A stretch of 64,000 nt of DNA from Podarcis liolepis (lineage: Eukaryota). The number at the start of each line of letters is the position of its first letter. Positions within the stretch are counted from its first letter, which is position 1. Under the pieces are notes generated by a model that saw only the letters and a program-made list of their open reading frames with translations, was not told where the DNA came from and searched no databases. A program made the position numbers and the translations under genes. This document shows, piece after piece, positions 22,664 through 59,819 of the stretch. The stretch lies in assembly GCA_965112155.1 (NCBI GenBank), contig OZ218101.1. One strand, written 5' to 3'.

Positions 22664-23566
22664 CTATTGAGCAAAATCAATACAGGGCCCAGGACAATTA
22701 GCTAACTAGATAATAAACTCCTAAGAATTAGCAAAATACTTCGGTAGAATCTTTCCCAACTTTATTGTTACAAACAAAAAAGTACACTTATTTTTATTTA
22801 TTTTTGTTTACAATTAGACAGAAAAAAACAAAGGTGAGTATTGGGTCATTGATTTTAAATATTTAAGTGACATGTGTATTCTGGATAGTAATGTGGGCCC
22901 ATATATTAACTGTCTAATACTCCCTAGCACAGTCTGACAGGTAATTGGAAAGATAGCTGTAATGTACAGAAACCACATATTAAATACCCATAGTGATTGT
23001 CAGTTGCATGGTTAGAGTTTTTAATTGTTTTTCTCAACGGAGAAGAAGCAAAGAACTCAACGGAGAATGAAGCAAAAGAAGACGATGCAAAATAAACGAG
23101 GCAATTCTTTGACAACAAATAAGTAAATCTTTAGAATTTTGACAATGAAATATGTTTATGTTCTGATGAAAATGAATGTGCTAACATGAAAAAAGAGTTC
23201 ATCCATATACCGATAAGTCATTTGCTCATCTGGAATAAAGATACAGAATCAATTATTTTTTTCTATAAAGCAATGGAAGTTTCTAAACAGAGTACACTTG
23301 ATATACACAAGTAAAGTATTATTTCCTATAAGTTTCTAAAATCTATTTAATGTAACATTTGCAAGGACACAAGGATAGGAATATGCAATTCAACAAGAAT
23401 TACTTAAATCATTTAAATAATAATATTAAGTATTGAACTACTATATCTCTACATCTTATTACATTTACATACAGAGTGACACATATATGAACATATATAT
23501 ATATATAAAATAATAATAATTATAATTATAAAATAATATGTAACACTGCTTCTAAAATGGCATTAC

Positions 23567-56178: not shown

Positions 56179-56340
56179 CTGTGCTTCTTGAGGTACTTGT
56201 GCTGCATCAATTCTGTCGGCAATATAACCAGTTAACTGTCGATCAATGAAAGCAAGAGACTCTTGAATTAACTGAAGGGTTTTGTCAATCTCTTGTGCAG
56301 AGTGGATACTTTGTTCAAGAACCTTTTGTCTCCTCACAGC
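56179..56340 (-). CDS. DMD: Dystrophin exon 30 (162 nt): AVRRQKVLEQSIHSAQEIDK...AAQVPQEAQ
   Basis: Acceptor atttttcag|GCT, donor CAG|gtgagt; phase 0/0. Confidence 0.96.
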
Positions 56341-56431
56341 CTGAAAAATAAAGGGAAAAGAGTATTAGCCATTCAATTTTTCTTTAATGCTGTTAAAAAC
56401 ACACAGAAATTTCATACTGATACACAACCAC

Positions 56432-56470
56432 CTTTTTGTAAGATAAATTTCGTCTTTTTTTGCCAGCCAT
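56432..56470 (-). CDS. DMD: Coding part of the alternative first exon of the retinal isoform Dp260: MAGKKRRNLSYKK
   Basis: AAAATGG start context, 13 codons, donor AAG|gtggtt, then a 91-nt intron and in-frame junction to exon 30. Matches the recalled human Dp260 N-terminus MSARKLRNLSYKK (RNLSYKK identical) and its location in intron 29. Confidence 0.87.
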
Positions 56471-56820
56471 TTTGTTTTTTAAATAAATAACCACAAAAAG
56501 TCAAAATTCCCTAAAATTCCCTAAATAACCAAACCAATTAGTGAGGAATTCTATAGTGAGTAGAAGACTGCAAAACTAAGTCCTGCCATTAGATAGTTTT
56601 GTTCATTCTGAAGCCTCGGGCAGCTCCTGATCCCATTATATATGTCAGGAGATTTCCTTTGGTCAGAACAAAGTTGCCGTCATCATAGTCCACTTACAGA
56701 TAATCCACTGCAACAAGTGAGAGGGATGAAAGTGCTGTTTATAAAACAAACTCTCACATAGGATATAAATAGTTTCTTAGAGCCTGGATTAAATGGTAGT
56801 AGGAATGATTAGAACTCTTA
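56471..56820 (-). promoter_or_regulatory. Putative Dp260 5'UTR/promoter with K50 homeodomain (CRX/OTX2-type) sites
   Basis: TAATCC at 56701-56706, GGATTA at 56786-56791, TGATTA at 56806-56811, and AT-rich TTTATAAA at 56738-56745, all directly upstream of the Dp260-like ATG. The TSS cannot be determined from sequence. Confidence 0.5.
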
Positions 56821-58842
56821 AATTTTGTCTTGACTCTTTATGGTTCACTCCTCCCCTTATTATAATATTTCTTAATGGTACAGCATTCAGCAAAAGGTTA
56901 CAAAAACTGGGGAAAGCAAGAGTCAGACTGTTCCTATTACTACTATAGCAAGTCACATTACTTTAAGCCTGCCCTATGACATTAGCGAAACCCCGCAATA
57001 TGGTTACTAAGACCTTCTTTGGTTTTACATTTTCCTTTGCCCCCCTTTTCATACTTAATAGTTTAAGATGATGACACATGCAATTTTCAGCTTAGTTTTT
57101 CACCTTCTTTCATATTCTGCCTTCTCATAATTTAGTTTTATCTGCATTGACTCTGCATTATTCATTCTTTTAATAGGCTATAAACCTAACATTTCTATTC
57201 ACTCAATAAACCTGGAGGTCAAGTCACACTACACATATTTCCAAGGCCATATGAAATGTAACCTTGAGGTCAAGGACTCGAAAGTAATGTTATGGAAAAA
57301 AAACTATTTTATAAAAGCATTCACCAACAGAAACAGAACAGCTGAATAGCCTTCATCATTTCTTTTCCTGTGACGGTTCAAAATGGAATGTAGTGAATAT
57401 GTCTTCACTCACATAGCAACAAATTGCTGTGTGCATTGTAAAACAAACATGGATTTCGGTGGTAATGGCGTTATGAGAGCTCACTTTTATATCTGTCTTA
57501 TATCCTGGGACACAGGACAGGATTACCTCAGCCACTTCAAATGTTCTGTCATACATCCACAGTGTATAAGGTACTAATAATGTGATTTAAAAAAACCATC
57601 TAGTTCCTTTGTAACCTTCCAATCAATAAACCACAGAAAAAGGATATATGACTCAATGAATATAGATCATTTTACATTTTAATGAGGGTGTTATAATAAT
57701 GCGGGTGTTTTTCAAAGGGAGAATATTTAATTACCAGTGTTTTTGATTCCTCCTGCCAGTTTTATCCACAATGAGGGAACACACTGGTCACAGAAGCATG
57801 CAGCAGTCGCACAAGTGTCAGGAGTTGGCCAACTCCTTTGTTAATGCTAATTAACCCAGAGAGTGATCATGTGGATTGTTGGCTGGCATCAGAGAGGAGA
57901 GCCTTTGGGGGGGTAAGAATTGTGAAGAGGGGTTATCAATGTCCTGTGTTATGCTAACTGATTATTAGGAGGGTTATGTGGAACTGAAGGGATTTGGATG
58001 TTCAAAAATAAGGGGGAAGATTAGTAAATTAAACTTGGTGCTTTGGCTCTTGGGAATTTGATGTTCTCATTTAAGTCTTCTGTGACCTGCCTGAAAATTA
58101 CAAATATTTATCTTTCCACATTCACTACCTTTGAGGTCAGCCTCCTTACATTCCAACCCCCACCCCCTGAACATAACAATTCACAGCTCAGGTTGTCAAA
58201 GAACTATTGCATGATTGCTTCCTGTGCAACCTGGTTGGTTGGGCAGAAAATGGGTATAAAACACTTTCTATCCCATGCTTTCTTTGCCCCCCCCCCTTTT
58301 CTGCTATCCCCTTGTTTGCTGATGCCTACCTTTACAGCAGTGCTGTGTGCAGACAATATTTCTTTGGGCGGGGGGAGGGGGCAGTCAAAGGCAGTAAGCA
58401 GGTATATGGAAATGCTAGCTAAGAAAGTATTATTTTTTCTTAGTCTGTGCTGATTCTGTACTCCAAGTGTTCTTAAACTGCTGATTTATTTTATTAGACA
58501 TCTTATAGTGCATTGGGTTTTAGGATACCTCTTTTGTTTTGTTTTCATTCCAAATAAATTTTGCTGCCTTCTAAAGTGAGGTTCACAAGGGAAAATAGTT
58601 TGTTTTTCCATTTGTTTTCATGTTAATATTCCATTTCTTTTGTTTTCTATTTATTGAATTTATTTCCATTTATTTAATTTAACGAACTTACAGACTTTTC
58701 AAGATATATTCATCCCAACATGGTTTACAAAGCAATGTACACCTATATATATACAGCACTATTTATACAACATAGATTGAGTCTTTAAGGCCCATTTAAA
58801 TTATATAAAGTCCTATGGGGCAGAGTTGGAATGCCCATAAGG

Positions 58843-59123
58843 CAGGGTGAAGCACCCACCTTAAGGAGGCAGAAGTGCAAGAGGCGGAGCTCCGTCCTCC
58901 CACTGGCTCCTGCTGCCAGCTGAAGGCCTTCCCTCTCACAGACAAGAGGGAGGCATTCTAGCATGTAGCACTGCCACTCGTCTTACCTGTCCCCAGACAG
59001 AGAAGCGAAGCACCTATGCATTGCGGAACGCCCCAGTGGCAGAAATGGTGGCAGGGGTGGGGGGAGGCAGGATGTGGCAACTCCCGTTTCAGCACAGGTG
59101 CCAAAATGGGACCAGCCACCCCT
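58843..59123. mobile_element. Degenerate GC-rich hAT-like element
   Basis: CAGGGTG / CACCCCTG termini and a GC-rich interior in AT-rich context; TSD not convincing. Confidence 0.45.
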
Positions 59124-59276
59124 GCCACTGGGGATAAATCAGGTTTACATCTAAGCTACGCTCTACTTCCATTCTGCCCCATCTTCATCGTGAAACGGGG
59201 CTGCCAAATTTAAAGGAACTGACCATTCACTTTTAATCCGGAAAGTGTCTTTCTTACCTACTCTGAGAGCTTTGGG

Positions 59277-59393
59277 TGTGGGTCCAGAATTGGCCTCCAC
59301 AGTCACTTACAGACTCATTGTTAAAACCGTGTTTATGGAAGACAATCTTACTCGGTTACGAGTGATCGCCAAAGAAGAAGAAGAAGAAGAAGA
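59277..59393 (+). mobile_element. 5'-truncated RTE-clade LINE 3' end
   Basis: Translation CGSRIGLHSHLQTHC* resembles the RTE C-terminal zinc-knuckle region; short 3'UTR and (GAA)n tail. Confidence 0.8.
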
Positions 59394-59669
59394 CATGTAT
59401 GTAGATTTCCTAGAAAAATTGATACCAGGTAGTCCCTCTTATACACATATAAAAAGACACAAAACACATATACAGAGAGCTGCTTCTGTTAATCGGTCCC
59501 TTCCAAAGCTGTCACAACTTTTGCTGGTTTCTTCTTGCGTCAACACTGTTGTCCGCATCTTTACAACACAGTATTTTATAAGACAGGTAACTTTACCTTT
59601 CAGCTCTCCTGTTAAACACAGTGTTTAAGAGAAAAGTATGGGGGAAGGAAATTATTTCTTAAAAAGTAC

Positions 59670-59819
59670 CTCTTGTTGTAGCTCTTCCCACCGAGTATTG
59701 AACTTCTCCAGTTTTTCATTGATCAGTTCATCCAGAACTCCACCATCAGTTAAGGTCTGTGCCAACTCACGAATCTGATTGCGGTTATCTTCTGGGTGTT
59801 GCATTAATGTTCCCAGAGA
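59670..59819 (-). CDS. DMD: Dystrophin exon 29 (150 nt): [50 protein letters not shown]
   Basis: Acceptor atgtttcag|TCT, donor GAG|gtactt; not in the ORF track, translated by hand. Confidence 0.95.

Follow-up and report, generated by a model that had tools for sequence, protein, structure and literature searches.

Introduction

Dp260 is the retinal isoform of dystrophin, and its first exon, R1, lies in intron 29 of the dystrophin gene. In mammals, Dp260 is located at photoreceptor terminals in the outer plexiform layer and keeps 15 of the 24 spectrin repeats (PMC2840664), and the rod-domain actin site is kept as well (PMC11967788). Loss of Dp260 has been tied to electroretinogram and colour-vision defects in Duchenne patients (PMC3000234, PMC2840664). 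The human exon R1 of Dp260-2 (NM_004012, cited in PMC3000234 and PMC9896479) is 236 bp long and contains 13 codons and a 5' UTR of 197 nt with a primate cryptic intron; an intron of 105 bp separates it from exon 30 (Kubokawa et al. 2010, PMC3000234).

The Dp260 first exon has been reported across tetrapods, with conservation reaching the amphibians (Jin et al. 2007). The Xenopus Dp260 transcript (DQ831004) has its promoter at the same position and an N-terminus reported as highly conserved, and it was detected by RT-PCR in that study. The isoform-specific intron was 101 to 130 nt long in the few species compared, and conservation of the N-terminal tag was taken to imply function. The text of Jin et al. 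(2007) mentions neither "lizard" nor "Anolis." Our searches of the literature, with most subscription journals outside their coverage, found nothing relevant on Dp260 in reptiles, no paper on CRX in connection with a Dp260 promoter, and no paper testing the function of the 13-residue tag. The human tag peptide given in the original prediction did not occur in any of the papers covered.

Here, we analyzed a stretch of 64,000 nucleotides from Podarcis liolepis (contig OZ218101.1), called the window below, in which an earlier reading of the letters alone (the original prediction) had pointed to a lizard orthologue of the R1 exon. The window was indeed of lizard origin: of 17 species compared, Podarcis had the proteins most similar to it (973 to 974 identities over 1073 aligned positions). 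We conclude that the 13-codon exon in intron 29 of lacertid dystrophin is very probably the Dp260 first exon.

Results

Anatomy of the 13-codon exon

Using tblastn, we located 18 dystrophin exons on the minus strand of the window. The proteins matching exon 30 were dystrophins, and the short exon was found within dystrophin, directly upstream of exon 30 and with an ATG of its own. The exon numbers 29 and 30 were taken from the literature rule that the Dp260 first exon joins exon 30. Table 1 lists the features around the exon.

Table 1. Features of the exon 29 to exon 30 region of the window
Feature	Position	Strand	Basis or remark
Dp260-type (R1) first exon, coding part, 13 codons	56432..56470	-	Reading frame and identity to residues 1-13 of P0287, P0289 and P0448
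Isoform-specific intron, 91 nt, GT..AG	56341..56431	-	GT donor at 56431; 3' end is a pyrimidine tract plus CAG
Dystrophin exon 30, 162 nt, phase 0, common to full-length and short form	56179..56340	-	Exactly covered by RNA reads and contigs
Dystrophin exon 29, spliced to exon 30 in place of R1 in the full-length form	59670..59819	-	tblastn; joint 56339-59669 in 6 RNA reads
Putative 5' UTR, about 168 nt, 5' end inferred	56471..56638	-	Human 5' UTR is 197 nt for comparison
15-mer, 14/15 match to start of human R1 5' UTR primer	56624..56638	-	Primer from PMC3000234
Putative proximal promoter	56639..56800	-	TAATCC at 56786-56791 and 56701-56706; TATA-like stretch near 56642

The frame from 56470 to 56432 on the minus strand consists of the ATG and 12 further codons and encodes the peptide MAGKKRRNLSYKK. 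The start context is strong (ACAAA-ATG-G, with A at -3 and G at +4), whereas the human R1 start has T at -3 and A at +4, as given by a reverse primer (PMC3000234). Upstream, the frame is closed by a stop at 56503, 11 codons before the ATG. The exon joins exon 30 in frame across the 91-nt intron, and retention of that intron would stop the frame after 25 codons. The donor at 56431 scored 7.1, compared with 3.4 to 10.1 for the 18 true dystrophin donors. The exon stretch had a single match within its own genome. Thus, the ATG in good context, the 13 codons, the GT donor, the 91-nt intron and the in-frame join described in the original prediction were all present on the minus strand.

Its position at the 3' end of intron 29, its 13 residues and the short intron that follows are all shared with human R1. 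The lizard intron is shorter than the human one (91 versus 105 nt); it is short, yet 10 nt under the range of 101 to 130 nt published for a few species.

Elsewhere in the window, read-through of the exon 41 donor into the start of intron 41 (22480-22300, minus strand) remains open over some 60 codons, of which roughly the first 25 resemble the alternative C-terminus of a bird model (P0013, Pipra). This read-through recalls the elongated exon E41e and the truncated N-Dp260 of mouse and human retina (PMC9896479).

The N-terminal tag in other dystrophins

Among 477 fetched proteins, 448 contained exon 30, and eight, from six species, began with the 13-residue tag joined to exon 30. All eight, which are predicted database models, start at the same Met as the ATG at 56470. 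The tag was identical at 13 of 13 positions in Crotalus tigris isoform X9 (P0287, 2341 aa) and in two models of Pogona vitticeps (P0289 and P0448, 2338 and 2368 aa; UniRef A0ABM5FYB1 and A0ABM5FY73), both species belonging to squamate families other than the lacertids. P0287 and P0289 are without PF00307 (CH) and keep the spectrin, WW, EF-hand and ZZ families.

Close variants of the tag, identical to the lizard tag at 9 to 11 of 13 positions, start the models of four birds: Apaloderma (P0008), Phaethon (XP_010291736.1), Merops (P0014) and Pithys (XP_071429807.1 and XP_071433910.1). The bird tags likewise have 13 residues, KK at positions 4-5, RNLSY at 7-11 and a basic pair at 12-13; they differ in having M for R at position 6, S or G as the second residue, G or A as the third and, in Pithys, R at 12. 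Across the lizard, snake and bird tags, the invariant core comprises positions 1, 4-5, 7-11 and 13.

None of the fetched lacertid dystrophin models begins with the tag. The original prediction had described the exon as easily missed by annotation, and this holds for the fetched lacertid models but not for those of Crotalus, Pogona and the four birds. The tag was also absent from all 149 additional proteins of a representatives search, and a search of long proteins with a bird tag plus exon 30 gave forms without the tag in the best 120 of 228. The short tag-bearing forms sit inside sequence clusters; the turtle, marsupial, shark and skate cluster members listed, at most 15 per cluster, did not carry the tag, which is uninformative on its absence in those groups.

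A paralogue with the same exon layout as dystrophin was found on another contig (L008, G000:C3:65264000-65270600). It is most likely utrophin, is 51% identical to dystrophin at exon 30 and has an intron 29 of about 2.25 kb. Bird-tag probes found no tag-like exon within 6.6 kb surrounding the corresponding intron of utrophin (best scores, 18 to 25).

Sequence upstream of the ATG

By analogy with mammals, transcription would start near 56638, from an internal promoter some 170 nt before the ATG. At the far 5' end of this putative 5' UTR, the lizard and human R1 exons have a 15-nt stretch in common, which likely marks a conserved transcription start region. The expectation for the 15-mer in the window was 0.007 at one mismatch, whereas at two mismatches it was not significant window-wide (21 of 100 shuffles). 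The sole mismatch is at 56633, where a DNA contig of one relative has the human letter, giving 15 of 15 there. The other three human R1 primers had no meaningful match in the lizard, so one of the four primers matched.

The lizard 5' UTR would be shorter than that of human R1 (about 168 versus 197 nt). The lizard has no AG six bases before the ATG and therefore lacks the acceptor used by the cryptic 5' UTR intron of primates. The putative 5' UTR contains three upstream ATGs, whose short frames are all closed before the main ATG. Two short upstream open reading frames of 5 and 12 codons (56606-56551, minus strand), with their ATGs at 56606 and 56589, overlap by a TAATG stop-start, and the third upstream ATG, at 56636, lies at the inferred transcript start.

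The putative proximal promoter holds two TAATCC hexamers, which we take to be a CRX/OTX-type motif. An excess of TAATCC was considered as promoter evidence and rejected: two copies in 630 nt against 0.3 expected gave P=0.036, which fails over the seven motifs tested.

Loss of the ATG or GT in close relatives had been named in the original prediction as speaking against the exon. In the DNA contig of the one relative, exon 30, the 91-nt intron and the coding exon are all unchanged, and so is 56639-56799. Changes in this relative were fewer in the 500 nt upstream of exon 30 (5/500) than in the flanks (25/839; p=0.02).

What the tag might do

K[KR]x[KR] and bipartite basic stretches are nuclear localisation patterns, and basic residues at both -3 and -2 of a Ser make up the canonical PKA pattern. 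The tag together with the start of exon 30 has nine K/R in its first 19 residues. The monopartite and bipartite patterns, as well as [KR]xRxxS and Sx[KR], were found in all six tags scanned (lizard, snake and four birds). The canonical PKA pattern was found in none of the six, as the residues at -3 and -2 of Ser10 are R and N. The original prediction had called the lizard peptide more basic and NLS-like; the case for a gain specific to lizards is weak, with six K/R in 13 residues against five in birds (R rather than M at position 6) and the patterns themselves common to birds. The proposed basophilic kinase site in RRNLS likewise fits [KR]xRxxS and Sx[KR], in snake and birds as well, but it is not a canonical PKA site.

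Our tentative suggestion, which we hold at well below even odds, is that the tag may act as a cytosolic polybasic patch that helps to anchor the new N-terminus to acidic membrane or to the cytoskeleton, and that Ser10 could be a switch for a basophilic kinase. Such a patch would be shared by lizards, snakes and birds. Lacertid lizards are day-active and have a cone-dominated retina. A more elaborate and rather doubtful version is that the KxRNLSY[KR]K core, as a basic docking motif switched by phosphorylation, places Dp260 at photoreceptor ribbon synapses, that its perfect conservation in cone-dominated lizards points to a cone-synapse scaffold, and that translation is tuned by the overlapping upstream open reading frames in place of the primate cryptic intron. 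In mouse, Dp260 is higher in rods than in cones (PMC9896479). Mimicry of the spectrin helix that the tag replaces was also considered and rejected, as Leu9 and Tyr11 are, by eye, out of register with the Trp and Leu that end exon 29.

A different role would follow if the basic tag were a working nuclear localisation signal, sharpened in squamates, by which lizard Dp260 reached the nucleus. The monopartite pattern K[KR]x[KR] is matched by KKRR, and the bipartite one by the tag read together with the beginning of exon 30; however, both patterns are equally met by birds, and full-length lizard dystrophin already contains five monopartite matches in its 3653 residues. Mammalian Dp260 is reported at photoreceptor terminals (PMC2840664), and the literature retrieved on Dp260 and nuclear location consisted of reviews, one of which ties nuclear location to Dp71 (PMC11967788). 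We therefore regard a nuclear role as improbable.

RNA evidence

We then considered four raw RNA runs of a relative, from two studies, with 6 to 12% of each run covered and the tissue unknown. None of the six junction reads used the donor at 56431; all six joined exon 29 to exon 30. The depth was 0 over the 13-codon exon and only 0.5 to 3.3 over exon 30. Three of three probable-RNA contigs also ran from exon 30 into exon 29. A search of sequencing runs gave none labelled as RNA; 14 probable-RNA runs each contained 0.26 of the query words, roughly what exon 30 by itself would account for, and they carry no weight on expression. The missing R1 junction reads count against broad use of the exon, with little power. 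Since the mouse Dp260 transcript was detected in retina samples only (PMC9896479), a blank in the relative's RNA would be expected for an isoform biased to the retina.

A short interspersed-repeat fragment in intron 29 (59276-59360) attracts numerous RNA reads that originate elsewhere in the genome, and 63 to 74% of the placed reads continue into sequence that differs from the window.

The blank in the RNA would also fit a true orthologue that survives in this lineage only as a relic, silent or hardly used, as would the lack of a tag-initiated model among the fetched lacertid dystrophins and an intron shorter than the published range. On the other hand, the relative's RNA is of unknown tissue and shallow even on exon 30, and the mouse transcript comes from retina samples only. 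The full identity of the tag (13 of 13) to that of an agamid and of a pit viper, together with the unchanged exon in a close relative, points to ongoing selection. A relic is thus very unlikely.

Chance level of the anatomy

An in-frame ATG..GT with a purine at -3 was present within 400 nt upstream of 15 of the 18 dystrophin exons of the window, and three of the 18 had an upstream ATG..GT with a donor score at least that of 56431. The 15/18 scan placed the exon 41 acceptor at 22720 (true position, 22663); the donor figures were unaffected. Such in-frame arrangements are common upstream of the window's exons because these are all phase 0. Homology, not anatomy alone, decides the identity of the exon. 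When three bird 13-mers were used as probes against the six frames of the window, each matched best at 56470 (BLOSUM62 scores of 57, 50 and 53), and the next-best sites scored 31, 25 and 31.

The frequency of such arrangements among phase 0 exons might suggest an internal cassette exon, or an ATG..GT arisen by chance, rather than a first exon. This reading is largely refuted and most improbable, given the in-frame stop upstream of the ATG, the start of eight of eight database models at this Met and the bird probes that single out 56470.

Discussion

The proposed orthology to the Dp260 first exon was supported by the starts of the squamate and bird models, by the 15-mer of the human primer and by the report of Jin et al. 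(2007). A Dp260-type exon is already known across tetrapods, and the same peptide is already present in squamate database models. The original prediction had dated the promoter and peptide at least to the amniote ancestor; conservation was upheld, but the age was understated and already published, with amphibians reached (Jin et al. 2007). The departures of the lizard exon are limited to the shorter intron of 91 nt, the strong start context and the upstream open reading frames.

A transcript started at the putative internal promoter is predicted to splice over the 91-nt intron to exon 30. Its product would be a dystrophin of about 2340 residues that lacks the actin-binding domain at the N-terminus and, as in mammals, would retain 15 of the 24 spectrin repeats and the rod-domain actin site. 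If the mammalian pattern applies, the promoter would be active in photoreceptors, where Dp260 may act at ribbon synapses as the link between beta-dystroglycan and the actin site of the rod domain.

The invariant core of the lizard, snake and bird tags (positions 1, 4-5, 7-11 and 13) tells the experimenter what to mutate. The exon can also correct annotation where this short exon is missing, and it adds a lacertid data point to an isoform known tetrapod-wide.
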